A stretch of 64,000 bases of DNA from an uncultured Planctomycetaceae bacterium (GCA_963815195.1 CAWFGE010000020.1:288001-352000); one strand, 5' to 3'. Positions 25,616 through 55,739 are shown, numbered from the stretch's first letter. A program made the numbers and translations. Notes: generated from the letters alone by a model not told the origin.

Positions 25616-25814
25616 CGCTTTGTGATGCCAACCCCCACGCACGAAATCCGAAATCCAGTCGTTCCCAGATACGAACAAAGGGCCGAAGGCCCGGCTCTAT
25701 GTAAGCCCAGGGCGAAGCCCTGGGAACCGGGAACGAAAAATGCAAAAGCCCCACCCGGGCGGCCCTAAACCGGACATTGGAATTTGTGTCGGATTTCGAA
25801 TCTTCCCCCGGCGA

Positions 25815-31631: not shown

Positions 31632-31705
<74 letters not shown>

Positions 31706-35203: not shown

Positions 35204-35254
35204 AACCAGGACACGAAGTCGCCAAAGGCTTCGTGTCCTGGTTTTTGTTTTTTT
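35204..35254 (+). terminator. Rho-independent terminator after clpX
   Basis: AACCAGGACACGAAG / CTTCGTGTCCTGGTT stem followed by a long T-tract. Confidence 0.75.
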
Positions 35255-35271
35255 CTCCATCGGGAAGCAGG

Positions 35272-38200
35272 ATGAGTCTGAAGAATTCGCCGAGCGAATT
35301 GTTGTCGGAATCCGTGCCGGAAGAGGACGCCCTGGCGCTCTTGCGGTCGGTGAATTTTGAGCGGCCGGAAGAGGCGCTCGGGCGGCTGCGGGGAATGCCT
35401 CAAGATGCCGCCGGCTTGAAGGCGCTCGGGGAATCCCTGCCCATGCTGCTGCATGCGCTGTCCGGCGCGGCCACGCCCGACGGCTCGCTGGTCAACTTCG
35501 AGCGGTTCGTGCAATGCGTCGAGGACCGCAACGGCCTGTTCCGATATCTGGCGGCCTATCCGCGGGCGGTCGAGATCTTGATCAAGCTGTTCGTGGGCAG
35601 CCAGTTTTTGACGGAAATCCTCCTGCGGAATCCGGAATATCTCGCCAAGCTCACCAACCACAAACGGCTCGCGGAATTCAAAAGCCGGGATCAGTTTTAC
35701 AGCGAAGCCCAAGCCGCCGCCGCGGAGTTCGCGGACATGCCCGACAAGCTGGACGCCCTCCGCCGCTGCCAGCATTGGGAACTCCTCCGCATCGGAGCCT
35801 GCGACGCGTTTGGGCTGTTGGATTTGAAGTCGGTCACCGTGCAGTTGTCGCTGCTCACCGACAGCATCGTGCAGGCGTGCCTGGCCTTGATGGCCGGCGA
35901 CCTCGAACTTTCGCTCGACGGATTTGTCGTGCTGGCGTTCGGGAAGCTGGGCGGGGAAGAACTCAATTACAGCTCCGACATCGATCTGGTGTTTCTCGCC
36001 GGCAGCGACGCCACCCGCTATTGGCCCTTAGGCCAGAAGCTGATCAAAGCCCTCACCGAAGCGACCGGCGAAGGGTTTTTGTACCGCGTGGACATGAGGC
36101 TTAGGCCGTGGGGCAAATCGGGGGCCCTCGTGAATACCGTCGATTCCCATTTGCAGTACCTGCAAAAGCACGGCCGGCATTGGGAAATGCAAGCCCTCCT
36201 CAAAGCCCGGCCGATCGCGGGGAACCTCGCCGTGGGCCGGGAGTTTCTGCTGCGCGTGCGGCCGTTGATGTTCGGCACGCCGATCGAGGAACTCCGCCAG
36301 AGTGTTCGCGGCATGAAGGACCGCATCGAAGCCGAGCTCAAAAAACAAGGCCGGAAATGGGGCGAGGTCAAAGCCGGCACCGGTTCGATTCGGGACGTGG
36401 AATTCACCACGCAGTTTCTCCAGCTCGCGCACGGCGGAAAGCATCCCGAAGTCCTCAGCTTCAACACCTTGGACGGCCTCGTGCGGCTTGCGGACTTTGG
36501 ATTCATCCAGGCCGATGAATACCGCCAACTGACCAGCGGCTATGTCTTTTTGCGGACGGTCGAGCATGCGTTGCAGCTCATGCACCACAAACAGACGCAT
36601 TCGCTCCCGGAAAGCCAGCGCGAATTGGCCTACCTGGCCCGCAGGCTGGATTATCCCAACGCGAAAGAGTTCTTGCTGCATTACGAACGCCACTGCACCG
36701 CGATCCGCCGGGTTTACGAACGCTACATCGGCGGTGTGGACCGCCCGCCCGAAAGCGAACTCCGGGCCCCGTCCGATCAACTGCTGAGCCACTTGGAGCA
36801 CATGGAGCCTTCGTATGTCGAGACCTTCTCAGAGAACGAAATCGCCCAGCATGCGAAAATGCTGGGTCGGCTTTCCCCGGACAACCTCATCGAAATCCAA
36901 GCCGAGGCGCTGAGCGACAAACTCTGGAAAGTCACGCTCGCGGGCTACGACTTGCCCGGCGACTTGTCCATGATCTGCGGCCTGTTTTTTGTGTATGGGT
37001 TTAATATCGTCGGCGGGAACGTCTTCACCGAAGAATCCTTCGTGGGCTCCGCCCACGCCCGGCGCCGGGCCGCGGGGGAATCAAACCTCAAAGGCGGTTT
37101 GTGAACGTGTTCTCGGTTCGGCCGCCGCTCGATCTCGTGTTGGACAAGGTCTGGCAGCGGTACCACGGCGACCTGGTGGAATTGCTCCACTTGATCGCCC
37201 AAGGCGAGCAGCGCAAAGCCCAGGGCAAGCTGGCCAAACGCATGGCCGTCGGACTGCGGTCGATCCCCAGTCCGCCGCCCGTGCTGTTTCCCGTCGATAT
37301 CGAAATCGACAACGACAGCTCCGAGAATTACACCGTGATGCACATCCGCGGCACGGACACCATCGGCTTTCTGTATGAGTTATCCAACGCCCTCAACCTC
37401 GCGGAAATCGACATCGCCCGCGTCATCATCAGTCTCGGTCGGGGACAGCGTGTTCGATACGCTGTACGTCACCGATCAGAACAAGCTCAAGATCACCGAT
37501 GAGAGCCGGCTCAAAGAACTCCGGGCGGCGGTCGTGCTCATCAAACACTTCACCCATTTGCTGCCCGGCTCTCCCAACCCCGAGACGGCACTACTCCAGT
37601 TTCGCGAGCTTTTGGAAGAGCTGTTCAAGCGCGAAAACTGGTACGAAGAGTTGTCTTCGCTCAACCGCTTCGACGTGCTCGACGCCCTGGCCCGTTTGCT
37701 CGGCGTGAGCACGTTTTTGTGGGAGGATTTTTTGCGGCTGCAGCACGAGAATCTGTTTCCCGTGGTCACCGACACCGAAGCCTTGGCCCACCGCAAACCC
37801 AAAGCCGACCTGGAACGGGAACTCGGCGCGCTTTTGGAAAAGGCCGGGGATTTCGACGCCCGCACCGCCGAGCTCAACGCCTTCAAGGACCGCGAAATGT
37901 TCCGCACCGACATGCGGCACATCATGGGCTACATCGGCGGGTTCGGGGAGTTCTCGGAAGAACTGGCGGACGTCGCTGACGCCGTCGTCGCCGGAGCCAC
38001 GCAGATTTGCAGCGTCGAATTGCAGAAACGCTTCGGTGTGCCGCGGTTGGAGAGCGGCGGCATCGCCCCCTTGTCCATTTGCGCCTTGGGCAAATGCGGC
38101 GGGCGGGAATTGGGATACGCTTCGGACATCGAATTGATGTTCCTTTACGAAGACGCCGGCTGGACCGACGGGGCAGAGTCCATCACCGTGGCGGAGTATT

Positions 38201-38925
38201 ATCAGCGGCTGGTGGAGCTGTTTCGGCAGACCATCAAAGCCCGGCAGGAGGGGATTTTTCAGGTGGACTTAAGGCTCAGACCCTACGGGCGGGCCGGGAG
38301 CCTGGCCGTCTCGCTCGATGCGTTCCAGCAATACTTCGGACCCGACGGAGCCGCCTGGCCTTACGAACGCCAGGCCCTCGTCAAGCTTCGCCCCGTCGCG
38401 GGCGATCGCAACTTCGGCGAACGGATCACCGCGATCCGCGATCAACTCATTTACACCGGCGAACCGTTCGACGTGGCCGCGATGCGCGGCATGCGGGAAA
38501 AGCAAGTCCTGCAACTCGTCAAAGCCGAGACGATCAACGCCAAGCTCAGCCCCGGCGGACTCGTGGACTGCGAATACCTCGTGCAAGGCCTGCAAATTAC
38601 GCACGGCCACCGCCATCCCGGCTTGAGAACCACGAATACTCTCAAAGCCCTCTCCGCGCTCGCGGACTTGGGAATCATTTCCGCCGTCGATTACGCCGAG
38701 CTTCGCGAAGCCTACATTTTTCTGAGGCGGCTGATCGACGGCCTCCGCATGGTCCGCGGGCACGCCAAAGACCTCACCGTCCCCCCGCCCGACAGCGAGG
38801 AGTTCGAATTCCTGGCCCGGAGGCTCGGCTACGGCAACGACGCCGCCCGCCTCAAACGCAACCTCGACCGCTCCACCGAATGCGTCCGCGAACTCAGCCT
38901 CCTCCTGGAACCCGCCGCCCCATAA
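35272..38925 (+). CDS. glnE: Glutamine synthetase adenylyltransferase GlnE-like, with central ACT-like domains (frameshifts near 37090 and 37435)
   Basis: Two nucleotidyltransferase motifs: GKLGGEELNYSSDIDL with VDMRLRPWG, and GKCGGRELGYASDIEL with VDLRLRPYG. Confidence 0.88.
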
Positions 38926-39789: not shown

Positions 39790-40688
39790 CTATTCGATGA
39801 TTTTGTTGATCGAGTATTCCACGATGCCCCGCGCGCCCGCGGCTTTGAGTTTGGGGATAATCGTGCGGACGAAGGACTCCGCCACGATCGCCGTGACATC
39901 CACCCAATCCGGATCGGACAGCGACGACACCGTAGGCGATTGAAGCGCGGGCAGTTGACCCAAAACTTCCTGCAGATTGTCCCGGCGGACGTTCATCATC
40001 AGCCCGACTTTGCCCTCCGCGGCGAGGCAGGATTCCAGCATGAGCGCGATGTTGTCCAGCTTTTCGCGAATCCAGGGGTCTTCGTAGGATTTTCTGTTGG
40101 CGATGAAGCGGGTCGTGCTTTGGATGACCTCGGCCACGATCCGCAGGTTGTTCGCCCGCAGCGAATTTCCGGTCTCGGTGACTTCCACGATCGCATCGGC
40201 CAATCGCGGCGGCTTGACTTCGGTCGCGCCCAGGAAAACTCCACCTTCGCGGTGACGCCGTGCTTTTCGAGGAAGCGCTTCGTAAGGCCCACGGCTTCCG
40301 TGGCGATCCGTTTTCCTTCCAGATCCTTCACGGTCTTCACTGGGGAATCTTCCGGCACGCAGAGCACCCACCGCACCGGGCGGCGGCTGACTTTCGAGAA
40401 CACCAGCTCGCAAATCTCATAAACGTCGGCTTCGGTTTCCAAGACCCAATCGTGCCCCGTGATCCCGGCATCCAAAATGCCTTCCTCGACGTACCGGGCC
40501 ATCTCCTGGGCGCGGATCAACAGGCATTCGATGTCCTCATCGTCGATGTCGGGATAATACGAGCGCGAGGAGAATTTGATCTTGTAACCCGCCCGGCGAA
40601 AAAGCTCCGCGGTCGCGTCCTGCAAGCTTCCCGCAGGAATCCCGAGCTTCAGCCGACGCTTAGTTTCTGTGGTTTCGGTGTCCGACAT
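39790..40688 (-). CDS. hisG: ATP phosphoribosyltransferase, long form (frameshift near 40230)
   Basis: [44 protein letters not shown]-terminal regulatory domain (PALQSPTVS). Confidence 0.95.
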
Positions 40689-41809: not shown

Positions 41810-42421
41810 ATGGCCGAACAAAAAGCAACCAACGTCACCTGGCACGAGCACCATGTTTCCAAGGCGGAACGTGAAAAACTCAACGGGCACCCGGGCAGCG
41901 TGCTGTGGTTCACGGGGTTGTCCGGCTGCGGCAAAAGCACCGTCGCCAACACCGTCGACCACATTTTGTACTCCCAAGGCAAACGCAGCTTCGTCCTCGA
42001 CGGCGACAATGTCCGCATGGGCCTGAACAAAAATCTGGGCTTCTCGCCGGAAGACCGGACCGAAAATATCCGCCGCATCGGCGAAGTCGCCAAGCTGTTC
42101 GCGAGTGCGGGGATCATCACGAGCACGGCGTTCATTTCCCCCTACAAAGCCGACCGCGACCTGGTCCGCGAACTTCTTCAGCCGGGCGAGTTCATTGAAA
42201 TCTACGTGAAGGCGTCGCTGGAAACCTGCGAAGCCCGCGATCCCAAGGGCCTTTATAAAAAAGCCCGCGCCGGGGAAATCAAAGGTTTTACGGGCATCGA
42301 CGCCCCCTACGAAGCCCCCGAAAGCCCGGAATTGGTCCTGGACTCCGACAGCAAAGGCATCGACGAACTGGCCCAGGAAGTCGTGGCGTACCTGGAAAGC
42401 CACAAACGGCTTTCGCTGTGA
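41810..42421 (+). CDS. cysC: Adenylyl-sulfate kinase
   Basis: [54 protein letters not shown] upstream. Confidence 0.97.
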
Positions 42422-42436
42422 GTCGTTTCGGCCAAC

Positions 42437-43783
42437 TCACCATTCGATCCGCTCGAACAATCGCATCAACTTGGCTCCGCGACTGGGGTTGATCGCGGCT
42501 TGATAGGCGATCAATCCTTGCAAATGGGCTTGAAAGTGCGCGCGGCCGGAGCGGTTTTGTCTCTTGGGGCCGTGCCGAATGCAGTTGAACAGAATCGCCC
42601 GCAGGCGGTCGTAATCATCCCGGCGGAGGTTGGGCCGCTGATTGAGCACGAGGCCACAGGCTTCCTGCCGAGCGGCTTGGCTCATCACGCGGGTCTTTCG
42701 GTGGCGGATTTCAAACCCTTCATTGAGCACGATGGCGCAAACCGAAATGCGAAAGCGTCCCAGGCTCCGCCGAAAATCGCGGCCGCCGGAAAACACCAGA
42801 TCGTCGGCATATCGCGTGTAGTTCGCGCCGGCTTTGCGGGCCAATCCGCTGAGCCGGCAGTCCAAACGGTAAGCCGCGAGGTTGGCGAGCGTGGGCGAGG
42901 TCGGTGCTCCCTGAGGCAAGTGTGGATTGCCGTATTGTTCCGCCAACCGGCGGTACGGATCGAGATCCAGTGAGTCGTTCAGTTCCTCAACGATTTCGGA
43001 AGGGACCGAGTTCGTGCAAAGTCCGGTCAACAACTCGGCGACCGCTTCGGGATAACCGGTCCAGCGAAACAGCGAGCGAACGCGGGCCCTGTGAATCGAA
43101 GGAAAGAAATGCCGCAGGTCCAAATGCAGCACAACCTGCTGCCCGGCGTGCGGCTCGACATAAGTCAAAACCGAACGGCCGCTGCGAAACGCGTGCGCTG
43201 CTTCGTGGGCGGGGATGCGGCCGACGATTTCTTTGAGGATGCGGCGCTGGATGTTTTTTAAGAGCGGCTTGGGTTCTTCGATCAAGCGGTATCCGGGGCC
43301 GCGTTTGGGCAGCCAGCGGTAACGGTAATGCCTGAGTTTTTCATTTGGCCGAAAGCGCTCGCGCCCGAAGCAATCCGCCAGCCAATCCAGGCGGGAAGGA
43401 CTGACCGACAACCAATCCGCCAAATCGCCGGGCGTGACCAACTCCGGCAGGTTCCAACCGGCGGGAAGACCTCGGCCGGGAATCATCTGCGGCCGAGGAA
43501 CGGCCAAGGTATCGATTTCGAGCCCATCGTTGAGTTCGAGTTCGCAAATTTTCTCCCACAAGATTGGATCGTGATTCAGGAAATCCACAAGCAGTCGCTG
43601 GGGGGGCGGCAAGGCATTGGCATCAAAGCGAGCCAGGATTCTTCGCGCGAAGGGTGCGATCCACCGGGCCCTGGGATCGGGCTGCAATGCTTTCTTGAGC
43701 CGATCGATCAACGCGTCGATCGTCCACGGACCGGACAAAATCACGATTGCCAGCCGGCGACTGAAAACCTTGCGATGCGTCAT
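42437..43783 (-). CDS. Retron-type reverse transcriptase with N-terminal extension (448 aa)
   Basis: RLIEEPK, HEAAHAF, LDLRHFFPSI, LPQGAPTSPTLAN and YTRYADDLVFSG motifs; region-Y-like QEACGLVLN. Confidence 0.92.
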   Translation of the reverse strand: MTHRKVFSRRLAIVILSGPWTIDALIDRLKKALQPDPRARWIAPFARRILARFDANALPPPQRLLVDFLNHDPILWEKICELELNDGLEIDTLAVPRPQMIPGRGLPAGWNLPELVTPGDLADWLSVSPSRLDWLADCFGRERFRPNEKLRHYRYRWLPKRGPGYRLIEEPKPLLKNIQRRILKEIVGRIPAHEAAHAFRSGRSVLTYVEPHAGQQVVLHLDLRHFFPSIHRARVRSLFRWTGYPEAVAELLTGLCTNSVPSEIVEELNDSLDLDPYRRLAEQYGNPHLPQGAPTSPTLANLAAYRLDCRLSGLARKAGANYTRYADDLVFSGGRDFRRSLGRFRISVCAIVLNEGFEIRHRKTRVMSQAARQEACGLVLNQRPNLRRDDYDRLRAILFNCIRHGPKRQNRSGRAHFQAHLQGLIAYQAAINPSRGAKLMRLFERIEW

Positions 43784-43800
43784 TGGGGAATTGGCGAAAA

Positions 43801-43974
43801 AAAACGGGCGGCACGTCCCACCTGGTCTGGTCACGCGTGAATTATGCTCCACAACGTGGAGGGGCATTCACGCCACGGAACGGTTCGGTTGGAAACAATC
43901 CCCGGGGTTGCCCCGGAGAGGAAAACTTCACCCGCAGGCAAAATCTTCCCACTTGAGACGTGCCGCCCGGTTTT
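43801..43974 (-). ncRNA. Putative retron msr-msd ncRNA
   Basis: 13-bp perfect IR CGGGCGGCACGTC (43805-43817 / 43957-43969); two msr-like hairpins (43920-43949, 43899-43919); msd-like hairpin (43835-43873); lies directly 5' of the RT. Confidence 0.8.
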
Positions 43975-43975
43975 G

Positions 43976-44004
43976 AATCTACGTCCACGATCGCAGCTTG
44001 TCAA
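43976..44004 (-). promoter_or_regulatory. Putative sigma70 promoter of the retron
   Basis: Minus strand TTGACA (44004-43999), N17, TAGATT (43981-43976). This puts the start site at the first IR arm. Confidence 0.75.
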
Positions 44005-44286
44005 TTTGCGCGATCGAAAGGTCGATTTGAGTCCTCACGGCCGGCGGGCACGCAAAAAGGCTGACTCTGTGGATTGTGCCACCAAGAAGGATTCTTTGGG
44101 CCAAAGGCCAAATCGCTTTCAGAAAACTCCGCCCCGGCCATGATGGACGCCGAGAATAAGTTATCGTACATTCCATTGCGGGTGAATCGGCGCTCGGCAT
44201 CCGTCCGAAAAGAAAGAAGAGCGGACCGCCGCCGGGCGATTTCCACCCCTCGAAGTCAAACGACACAACTCCCTGAACAGGCCAAT

Positions 44287-46473
44287 ATGCCTCCGGTTCA
44301 TCTTGCGATACTTTGGCATCAGCATCAGCCCTATTATCCCGACGATGTGAGCGGGGAAACCTTGATGCCCTGGGTTCGCCTGCACGGGACCAAAGACTAC
44401 TTCGGCATGGCCCGGCACCTTTTGGAAGTCCCGGAGTTCCGCTGCACGATCAACCTCGTGCCCAGCCTGCTCGTGCAGATTTTGAGATACACCGAACAGG
44501 GCGGCAGCGATCGGCATTTGGATTTGTCCCGCTTGCCCGCCGACAGCTTCACCGCTTCCGACCGGCGGGAACTGTTGTCGGCCGGTTTTATGGCCAACCC
44601 GGAAAGCATGATCCGACCGTATCCGCGGTATCAGGAACTTCTGCTCAAGCGCGGCGTCGATCCCGTGGAAAAAGCCGCCGCCCGCTTTTCCGAAGCGGAC
44701 CTCCGCGATCTTCAGTGCTGGAGCAATCTCACCTGGATTCATGAACTCGCTTTTGAAGACGATCCCGAACTCCGCGAGTTCCGCAAGAAAGGCAAAGGCT
44801 ACAGCGAAAGCGAAAAAGCCTGGCTTCTCGATCGGCAGATGGCGATTCTCCGGCAGGTGATTCCGCTCCACAAGAAGCTCGCGGAATCGGGGCAGGTGGA
44901 ACTCACGACCACGCCGTTTTATCATCCTATCCTGCCGCTCTTGTGGGACAAGACCTCGGCCCGGCAGGCCATGCCCGATTGCCCGCTGCCCCGGTACGTG
45001 GACCGCTACCCGGAAGATGCCCGCCGGCATCTGGGGCGGGGCGCGGCGTTTCACGAAAAGATTTTTGGGAAGCCGCCGCGGGGCCTGTGGCCTTCGGAAG
45101 GTTCAGTCTCACAGGACATCTTGGAGGCCATCACCGAAGTCGGCATCGAATGGATCGCCACCGATGAGGAAATCCTCGCCCACTCCACGGGCGGCCGGGT
45201 CGCGCGGGACGGGCAAGGCCACGCAACGCATCCCGAACTCTTGTATCGGCCCTGGAATGTCGAAGCCGGCACGAAGCCGTTGCAGATCGTGTTTCGCGAT
45301 CACGGTCTGAGCGATTTGATCGGCTTTCATTACCAGCGGAGCGAACCCCATCATGCGGTGCAGGACCTCATCGGCCGCGTGCTCGCCATCGGGCGGGCGG
45401 TCAGCGCCGAAGGCAGCCACCGGCCCGCCTTGGTGCCGATCATTCTGGACGGCGAGAACTGCTGGGAATACTACCCGGACGGCGGCGTGGATTTTCTCCG
45501 TCGGCTTTACCGCGACGCGGTCCGCAACGAACGCCTCCGCCCCGTGACGATCAGCGAGAGCCTCAAGGAGTTTCCCGCGACCGACACGATCGGCCGATTG
45601 TTCGCGGGCAGCTGGATTTCGCACAACTTCGCGATCTGGATCGGCCATCACGAAGACAACACCGCCTGGGATCTCCTGCACATGACCCGCGAGTTTTTGA
45701 AGGAAACCGCCGCCGCGGGCACGGCCGAGCCCGAGGCTTTGGAGAAAGCCCAGAACGAACTCGACATTGCCGAAGGCAGCGATTGGTTCTGGTGGTTCGG
45801 AGACGATCATTCGTCGGCCCAGGATGCGCTGTTCGATGAACTGTTTCGCCGGCATTTGAGCAACGTCTATCGGCTCTTGGGCAGCAATCCGCCCAACGCC
45901 CTTCGCCGGCCGATCACGCGGGCCGATCATCGGTTGCTCCACACGCAGCCAACGGGTTTGTTGCGGGTGAAGGTCACCGGGCGGGCCACGTATTTTGAAT
46001 GGATCAGCGCGGGGAAATACACGAGCGGCAGCGAGCGCGGCACGATGACGCTCGTCACCGAAGGATTGATCAAAGGGCTGCACTTCGGCTTCGACCCGGA
46101 GCGGCTGTTGATCCGGGCCGACACCAACGGCCGCGCGAAAGACGCGTTTCGCTCGGTGGACGAAGTGCGGGTGCGGTTCCAAGAGCCGGCCCAAACGGAG
46201 ATTCGCATCACCGGAGCGAACACCCGCCAGCCGGCCGCCGCACTGTTTCGCCAGCAGAAAGAAGTCAACAAAGCCAAGGTGGAAGCCGCGATCGACACGC
46301 TAGTCGAGATCGGCGTGTCGCGGGCCGATTTGAACGTCGACGTGGGGGACCGGGTTTCGTTCTTCGTGGATTGCCTGAGCAAAAACCGCAGCCTCGACCG
46401 GGCTCCCCAGGAAGGTTTGATCGAACTCACGGTCCCCTCGCCGGATTTTGAGTTGTTCATGTGGCAGGTGTGA
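44287..46473 (+). CDS. Glycoside hydrolase family 57 (amylopullulanase-like)
   Basis: [36 protein letters not shown] and AEGSDWFWW motifs. Confidence 0.92.
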
Positions 46474-46655
46474 GCGGAGGAATATATTAGCCGGCACGCG
46501 CTCGCGTCCGGTCCAGCGAACGTCAGAGAAAATGGCAGAAACCGGCGGCGAGCTAGCGCCCTGCGGGGAATTTTTGGGAAAGCCACCAAAACTCAGCCGG
46601 TGAGCGGAGAGCCAAGAGCCGGAAGCAAACAGAAGCAAGAGACGAAGAATAGGTT

Positions 46656-46867
46656 TTTACCGCGAAGCGGTTATATGCCAAAGCCCAGGGTCGCGCAGCG
46701 CACCCTGGGTTGGTGATGTTTCATCAGTTCAATACGCCGAAGGCGTTGCACAATCGGTTTGTATAACGCCTTCGGCATAAGGCAATGTATTGTGCATCCA
46801 TACCCAGGGTGGCGCGGCTGCGCCGCTGACCCTGGGCTTTGAAATGTAACGCCTTCGGCGTAAAGAC
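46656..46867. repeat. ~210-bp multi-hairpin palindromic element (MITE/REP-like), copy 1
   Basis: Nested ACGCCGAAGGCGT and CCCAGGG...CCCTGGG hairpins; inverted homolog at 55529-55739. Confidence 0.85.
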
Positions 46868-55384: not shown

Positions 55385-55528
55385 TTGAGAAGAGGGGAAC
55401 CACGAATCAGACGAATAACACGAATAGTTTTTTAACTCGCGAATTTAGCTTGGAAGGCTTTGAACGGCAGCTCAATTCAACCCTTGGCCTACAACGTGAA
55501 ATCATCGATTTCGTTATCCATAGTTTTC

Positions 55529-55739
55529 GTCTTTACGCCGAAGGCGTTATATCTCAAAGCCCAGGGTCAGCGGCGCAGCCGCGCCACCCTGGGTTTCGAT
55601 GCAAAAATATAGCCATACGCCGAAGGCGTTATACAAAAGACTTGTATAACGCCTTCGGCGTAAGGAATACTTGGGAACCTGATCACCCAGAATGCGCTTC
55701 GCGATTCTGGGCTTTGTGATCTAACCGCTTCGCGGTAAA
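55529..55739. repeat. ~210-bp multi-hairpin palindromic element, copy 2 (inverted relative to 46656-46867)
   Basis: End-to-end similarity to the reverse complement of copy 1. Confidence 0.85.

Follow-up and report, generated by a model that had tools for sequence, protein, structure and literature searches.

We analysed a stretch of 64,000 nucleotides from an uncultured Planctomycetaceae bacterium (GCA_963815195.1, CAWFGE010000020.1:288001-352000; the whole stretch is called the window and supplies all coordinates below unless a contig handle is given) that carries a retron, namely a reverse transcriptase (RT) gene preceded by its msr/msd non-coding RNA (ncRNA). The element is a self-contained promoter–ncRNA–RT cassette of ~1.57 kb and, judged by profile naming and a tree, very probably an intact stand-alone retron of RT clade 11 of Mestre et al. 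(2020; PMC7736814). Its effector-less state is a trait of the lineage and not a local loss, and the locus is one more member of a catalogued lineage, not an undescribed type. A preliminary description had presented it as a retron with an atypical RT, possibly of an effector-less type with an undescribed role: effector-less it is, but the lineage was already described (clade 11, PMC7736814), and features that look odd are normal for a clade already catalogued as lacking effectors. The parts of the element are as follows.

43976..44004, minus strand: putative sigma-70-type promoter (TTGACA, 17 nt, TAGATT), directly 5′ of the ncRNA
43800..43974, minus strand: msr/msd ncRNA of 175 nt, delimited by inverted repeat, folding and covariation
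43954..43968, minus strand: 5′ arm (a2) of the closing stem, from inverted repeat and folding
43952, minus strand: predicted branching guanosine, just 3′ of a2 and facing the G at 43821-43822
43920..43949, minus strand: msr stem-loop 1, variable in sequence with conserved pairing
43900..43917, minus strand: msr stem-loop 2, with the lineage signature GGGG-NNA-CCCC
43835..43873, minus strand: msd hairpin with internal loop, template of a predicted multicopy single-stranded DNA (msDNA) of ~70 nt
43806..43820, minus strand: 3′ arm (a1) of the closing stem, from inverted repeat and folding
ATG 43783 to stop 42437-42439, minus strand: RT gene, an open reading frame (ORF) of 448 amino acids
43499..43783, minus strand: N-terminal extension of the RT, residues 1-95, a predicted five-helix bundle
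42437..43498, minus strand: retron RT core, residues 96-448 plus stop, with YVEPH at 208-212, D222, YADD at 325-328 and ACG at 375-377

The RT belongs to a catalogued effector-less lineage

When compared with the PADLOC profiles, the RT matched RT_outgroup (PDLC03740) with 467 bits, positions 7-407 of the 407-position profile aligning to residues 7-448, while the next typed profile, type XIII, reached 317 bits over residues 111-446. We infer from the naming of the RNA models in Table 1 of PMC13712802 that RT_outgroup corresponds to clade 11. As this profile also covers the N-terminal extension, the latter is simply how proteins of this known lineage begin, which is one of the outcomes that the preliminary description had itself named as refuting its reading. 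A tree of 34 RT cores (IQ-TREE) placed the extension-type RTs together with two Mycobacteriales RTs, apart from type XIII and a Planctomycetaceae sister lineage (ultrafast bootstrap, UFBoot, 98); type XIII was itself separated with UFBoot 100, the inner nodes being weak.

Mestre et al. describe stand-alone (msr-msd)-RT cassettes for clade 11 and for one branch of clade 2, report that most of the hosts have no homologue of a known effector, and allow for either an effector acting in trans or another function (PMC7736814). Clade 11 hosts were Actinobacteria in that survey; a 2026 survey lists members in Pseudomonadota, Acidobacteriota and Planctomycetota and, in the sections that describe clade11-A and clade11-B, gives RNA models (OutgroupA, OutgroupB) and no accessory gene (PMC13712802). 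The named relatives found here are planctomycetes, outside the 2020 host range and within that of 2026. Khan et al. (bioRxiv 2024.01.25.577267) included 18 clade 11 retrons, all without a subtype, and reported intermediate RT-DNA output for all clades except 2, 9, 10, 3 and 4, clade 11 included; the passages of PMC12548924 and PMC12819146 that concern us hold nothing further on this clade. Among 61 relative genomes, 14 encode this RT lineage; the extension was matched in 13 of them, and the copy in G023 is cut at its 5′ end.

The catalytic residues are in place: D222 is shared by 120/120 homologues and YADD by 119/120, and both are present here. Regions X and Y, of which the histidine of NAxxH and the glycine of VTG are the most conserved positions (PMC7736814), are kept through H212 and G377; the rest of each motif departs from the consensus, as it does in most of the lineage, with YVEPH in place of NAxxH and ACG occupying the position of VTG in the Ec86 RT. 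The replacement at residues 375-377 had been described correctly, the change in region X being an addition to that description. Because VTG is retained in only 11/120 homologues, its loss is ordinary in this lineage. The RT is therefore atypical when set against the E. coli retrons but not within its own lineage, where an extension and a non-VTG triplet are the norm. No sequence follows the RT thumb, which finishes at residue 448 in alignment with the C-terminus of the Ec86 RT, and we accordingly rejected a C-terminal fusion to a TOPRIM, DUF3800, protease or TIR domain, as in types I-C, VII-A1, XI and XII.

The cassette comprises a putative promoter, a structured RNA and the RT gene

Immediately ahead of the RNA lies the putative promoter, with 10/12 matches to the consensus and the sole promoter-like site in 42300-44400 (shuffled sequences yielded a mean of 0.4); the congener G001 keeps both hexamers and their spacing. 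The RNA is closed by a 26-nt terminal inverted repeat, which supplies a1 and a2 and encloses two msr hairpins and one msd hairpin. It folds with a z-score of –7.4, equalled by 0/200 shuffles. In a 10-sequence MAFFT alignment, 24/49 pairs show two-sided changes (11/17 in the closing stem) and 93% of paired cells are complementary as against 34–47% with slid partners, in a test biased in favour of the structure, which was derived from the same alignment. No Rfam family matched the RNA.

G43952, a G in 90% or more of the sequences in alignment A4, is placed like the branching guanosine of known retrons and may serve as such; by the same analogy, the product would be a branched, 2′-5′-linked msDNA of ~70 nt with ends at about 43822-43895. 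Stem-loop 2 is likely the element recognized by the RT: its GGGG-NNA-CCCC signature occurs upstream in 84/88 extension-type loci with enough DNA, in 10/12 sister-lineage loci and in 0/5 type XIII loci. At the base of the msd stem and in its internal loop, the nucleotide sequence itself, and not only the pairing, is conserved across phyla. De novo folding recovered the same architecture upstream of 13/14 genomic relatives. An RNA model built from the 10-sequence alignment matched upstream of the RT in 88/100 sources (100 of about 125 loci were scanned, and 10 of the 88 matches are training sequences); the 12 misses comprise five type XIII loci, three without upstream DNA, and L007, L020, L024 and L044. 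Beyond planctomycetes, the model matched records from Burkholderia (65–68 bits), Dietzia (44) and Tsukamurella (36).

The longest RT ORF (476 amino acids) starts at ATG 43867, which lies within the 5′ arm of the msd hairpin, while ATG 43783 stands 3′ of the RNA and gives the 448-residue RT. Since the longer count relies on an ATG inside the RNA, the extension amounts to about 95 residues and not the ~140 proposed earlier; the same boundary emerges from superposition on the Ec86 RT, whose residue 3 falls on model residue 96, so that residues of about 96-150 are the usual retron RT N-terminus.

The limits of the cassette are drawn by comparison with G001, in which 42437-44007 is conserved at 80.6% identity, promoter hexamers included, and flanked by different genes: similarity runs from the RT stop codon to the promoter and ends at 44007. 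The unit that stands between different genes is thus promoter, RNA and RT, with no third gene. In the window it is flanked by two genes that lie outside the element.

41810..42421, plus strand: cysC, adenylyl-sulfate kinase (APS kinase)
44287..46473, plus strand: GH57 glycoside hydrolase, divergent start at 44287

In G001 and G002, cysC is followed by another neighbour and GH57 is preceded by other DNA. The G+C content of the element resembles that of its surroundings. As the preliminary description had it, 15 bp separate the RT stop from that of the convergent cysC, a divergent GH57 gene begins upstream, and the transcript leaves no space for an effector, the promoter at 44004-43976 being directly 5′ of the RNA. 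Adjacent defence genes are likewise absent: of five window proteins compared with PADLOC, only the RT matched strongly; cysC gave weak P-loop cross-matches and the other three had zero matches. A 6-bp inverted repeat (42417-42439) covers both stop codons; a terminator scan between cysC and the RT gene found none.

No partner gene recurs beside the relatives

Clustering of 2445 six-frame ORFs of at least 70 amino acids from 113 loci, many with short flanks, revealed no gene family beside more than about 4–5 of the 95 extension-type loci, and those that do recur are housekeeping genes. This neighbourhood check, which the preliminary description had suggested, thus found no conserved partner, and the alternative it had named—a cognate effector lost here and kept by homologues—was not seen, as no partner family recurs among them. 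When one neighbour per side was picked by length and codon bias and cut to 400 amino acids, 4/140 matched PADLOC (an ABC ATPase, a permease, a methyltransferase-like protein and one weak candidate), none of the 140 being a retron effector in that database. Among the 73 downstream picks, 51 received a Pfam name, most commonly ilvC (three), with PIN, Uma2 and DUF433 occurring once each, and 43 were convergent with the RT gene. The lineage therefore lacks a specifically associated protein gene, as described for clade 11. No extension-bearing relative was found among 50,697 phage records, and a narrow search of viral contigs gave no confirmed match.

Type XIII retrons of the same genome as a possible source of partners

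An effector acting in trans had already been proposed for clade 11 in PMC7736814; we considered the accessory proteins of type XIII as one candidate. In the same genome (G000), an intact pair of SWIM_XIII (610 bits) and HEAT-ARM_XIII (424 bits) genes lies at C12:1097005-1100451 (minus strand) with no RT beside it, while a lone type XIII RT with an inverted-repeat RNA lies at C13:1180378-1182051 (minus strand) with no accessory gene nearby. RT and SWIM are likewise unlinked in G001 and G003 (SWIM in two pieces there) and linked in G026. This split type XIII retron is a candidate for a natural in-trans retron. SWIM_XIII was present in 12/61 genomes, a set that includes non-independent kin, and all 12 had a type XIII-like RT, with XIII identity profile-tested for the two RTs of the own genome. 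By comparison, only 5/14 genomes with a clade 11-type RT had SWIM_XIII; the query did not detect it in the other nine, two of which are single-contig. The type XIII accessory genes are thus not an obligatory partner of the clade 11-type RT and are unlikely to act with it in trans. Membership of the element itself in type XIII was rejected, as it has no adjacent SWIM, HEAT, ARM or WGR gene and neither a clade 10 RT nor a XIII RNA. At C23:234474-247151, G000 holds a second type XIII RT that is seemingly frameshifted, separated from its SWIM gene by ~10 kb with transposase-like ORFs.

The N-terminal extension is a conserved helical domain

Structure prediction, another check suggested at the outset, returned a confident five-helix bundle (helices at residues 2-16, 22-33, 42-53, 62-70 and 73-86) in a model of the protein with a predicted local distance difference test (pLDDT) score of 93 and a predicted template modelling (pTM) score of 0.90; modelled alone, the extension also folds (pLDDT 79). 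It gave no convincing match to known folds, and none to an enzyme or a toxin. The extension is carried by 115/120 top homologues, and a comparison of G000 with G001 gives it a ratio of non-synonymous to synonymous substitution rates (dN/dS) of 0.22, the core having 0.18. Across 65 members, only A12, G18 and W41 reach at least 90% conservation, no polar or catalytic residue is invariant (best R 0.86, D 0.80), and no Pfam family is common to all. Searching 301 genomes of the phylum for the domain, with 18 candidates scored per genome, yielded seven matches, each fused to an RT.

Related RTs carry other N-termini. Those of the Mycobacteriales RTs have no significant match to the extension, and the Planctomycetaceae sister lineage, which shares the RNA family (28–50 bits) and has RT_outgroup as its best profile, lacks the domain; in most of its 13 loci the protein opens with an amphipathic helix and a linker of low complexity. 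The N-terminal module thus appears exchangeable among RTs with a common RNA family, which fits docking or localization better than a toxin; the lack of an invariant catalytic residue and of a convincing fold match likewise speaks more for a module that docks or that binds RNA or DNA. Of the three readings offered in the preliminary description, a fused effector is consequently the weakest.

The sister lineage (L014, L017-L028) combines its amphipathic N-terminal helix with canonical-like VTG and NAxxH motifs. Its site is stable, with a conserved gene downstream in seven loci and another upstream in five. The downstream neighbour is presumably of membrane type (followed in two loci by what we take to be a mutL-like gene), and the upstream one an M50-like peptidase. 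The lineage looks vertically inherited; its conserved downstream gene could be a partner, or its place there could simply reflect synteny.

A possible mode of action and its alternatives

How might such a retron work? From its conserved promoter, a single transcript would carry msr/msd and the RT. The RT would bind msr stem-loop 2, prime from the 2′-OH of G43952 and copy the msd into a branched msDNA of ~70 nt. The RNA structure and catalytic residues behind this step were observed here; the msDNA itself is predicted from known retrons. The resulting RT–msr–msDNA particle would have no cis-encoded toxin to hold, and the five-helix domain, being probably non-catalytic, would bind the particle's own nucleic acid or tether the particle to a protein or site of the host that is encoded elsewhere. 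Without a cis toxin and with a non-catalytic N-terminal domain, the element would most likely be a non-toxic sensor or modulator working through a host partner in trans, rather than a classic abortive-infection system. We hold this account as a whole—an RT–msDNA particle acting through a host partner in trans—tentatively, at slightly short of an even chance. Several observations weigh against it: no partner was found, the literature passages cited here report no function for clade 11, and the extension of this copy is nearly neutral (net charge +1), unlike the family median of +7 among 65 members. Moreover, patchy presence (14/61 relatives; 7/301 across the phylum) and the differing sites in congeners also fit a mobile or defence element. 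Small helical toxins, for their part, need no catalytic residue. A broader version, possible though rather doubtful, is that clade 11 is a working effector-free class in which the exchangeable module—in this element a five-helix bundle of unrecognised fold, in the sister lineage an amphipathic helix that seeks membranes—places the particle on a host target encoded elsewhere, for a non-defensive or non-suicidal role. If so, nature would offer an example of a retron acting in trans in the split type XIII retron of the same genus.

Alternatively, the retron could be a low-cost resident without a host function, which makes msDNA, is occasionally moved and is kept by drift or by selection on RT–RNA pairing. 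The patchy distribution just cited, the unrelated housekeeping neighbours and the different chromosomal sites in two congeners, with similarity stopping at promoter and stop codon, would all suit a passenger of this kind; we nevertheless think it unlikely, given that the extension is under purifying selection like the core, that some relatives keep the same neighbours (ilvC in 3–4 loci, dus, nadA) and that retrons have no known means of moving by themselves (PMC7736814). Somewhat less probable still is effector-free defence, in which the msDNA or RT particle would trap or jam a phage DNA-binding or DNA-processing protein: phage proteins do contact other retron msDNAs, and the msd stem and loop are conserved across phyla, yet there is no defence island, PADLOC matches are confined to the four of 140 neighbours, and the searches of phage records and viral contigs described above gave no confirmed relative. 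A toxin fused to the RT as its extension and kept inactive by msDNA, in a single-gene design like types I-C, XI and XII, would agree with a conserved domain that folds alone and that, where context is complete, is found only fused to the RT, but strikes us as more improbable again. The fused effectors known so far are enzymes at the C-terminus (PMC7736814, Table 1), whereas this domain has no invariant polar residue, no defence context, and a place that other N-termini take in RTs with the same RNA family. Borrowing of the type XIII SWIM and HEAT/ARM proteins in trans is very improbable: type XIII is the nearest typed profile and the genome does have such a pair without an adjoining RT, but SWIM tracks XIII-like RTs and occurs in only five of the 14 genomes with this lineage, and the lone XIII RT on C13 is a candidate partner for the unlinked pair. 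We find it hardly credible that an ordinary tripartite retron has lost its cognate effector here and only here; single relatives with a nearby PIN, Uma2 or DUF433 gene (3/73) point that way, but no family recurs beside more than about 4–5 of the 95 extension-type loci, and the published survey reports no effector for clade 11 (PMC7736814).

Other features of the window

Elsewhere in the window, two genes are each split over two frames, by frameshifts or assembly errors, at 39790-40688 (minus strand; presumably hisG-like) and 35233-38925 (plus strand; presumably glnE-like). An Acido-Lenti-1 RNA (Rfam, just over threshold) lies at 25679-25724 and a tRNA at 31632-31705, both on the minus strand. 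A dispersed repeat of ~200 bp occurs at 46653-46864 and 55525-55739, with partial inverted similarity, and is present in the congener G001.

Comparison with known retrons

What effector-less retrons do has been a standing question since 2020 (PMC7736814). With cassette limits, promoter, RNA structure and true start now defined, the 95-residue helical domain is left as the single unexplained part, one that can be deleted or expressed alone. The element resembles clade 11 in its two-part architecture, the lack of an associated gene and a profile match across the whole protein, extension included; its RNA model reaches Mycobacteriales and Burkholderia records, and its RT groups with Mycobacteriales RTs in the tree. 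It differs from clade 11 as known in 2020 by its host, a planctomycete and not an actinobacterium—Planctomycetota being listed in the 2026 survey (PMC13712802)—and from the Mycobacteriales RTs in that their N-termini have no significant match to the extension.

Type XIII (clade 10: Mx162, Mx65, Sa163, Ne144) provides the nearest typed RT profile (317 bits) and shares long N-terminal extensions and, often, vertical inheritance. Yet that profile scores 150 bits below RT_outgroup and leaves the extension unmatched, and type XIII has another RNA (0/5 loci matched by the RNA model), is split off with UFBoot 100 and possesses SWIM and HEAT/ARM accessory genes. Retron-Eco1 (Ec86, type II-A3) differs in having VTG and NAxxH motifs, no 95-residue extension and an adjacent NDT effector. 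The Ec107-like branch of clade 2 is the other described effector-less lineage and in this respect alike, but its RT is distant (191 bits) and its protein short, without the extension.

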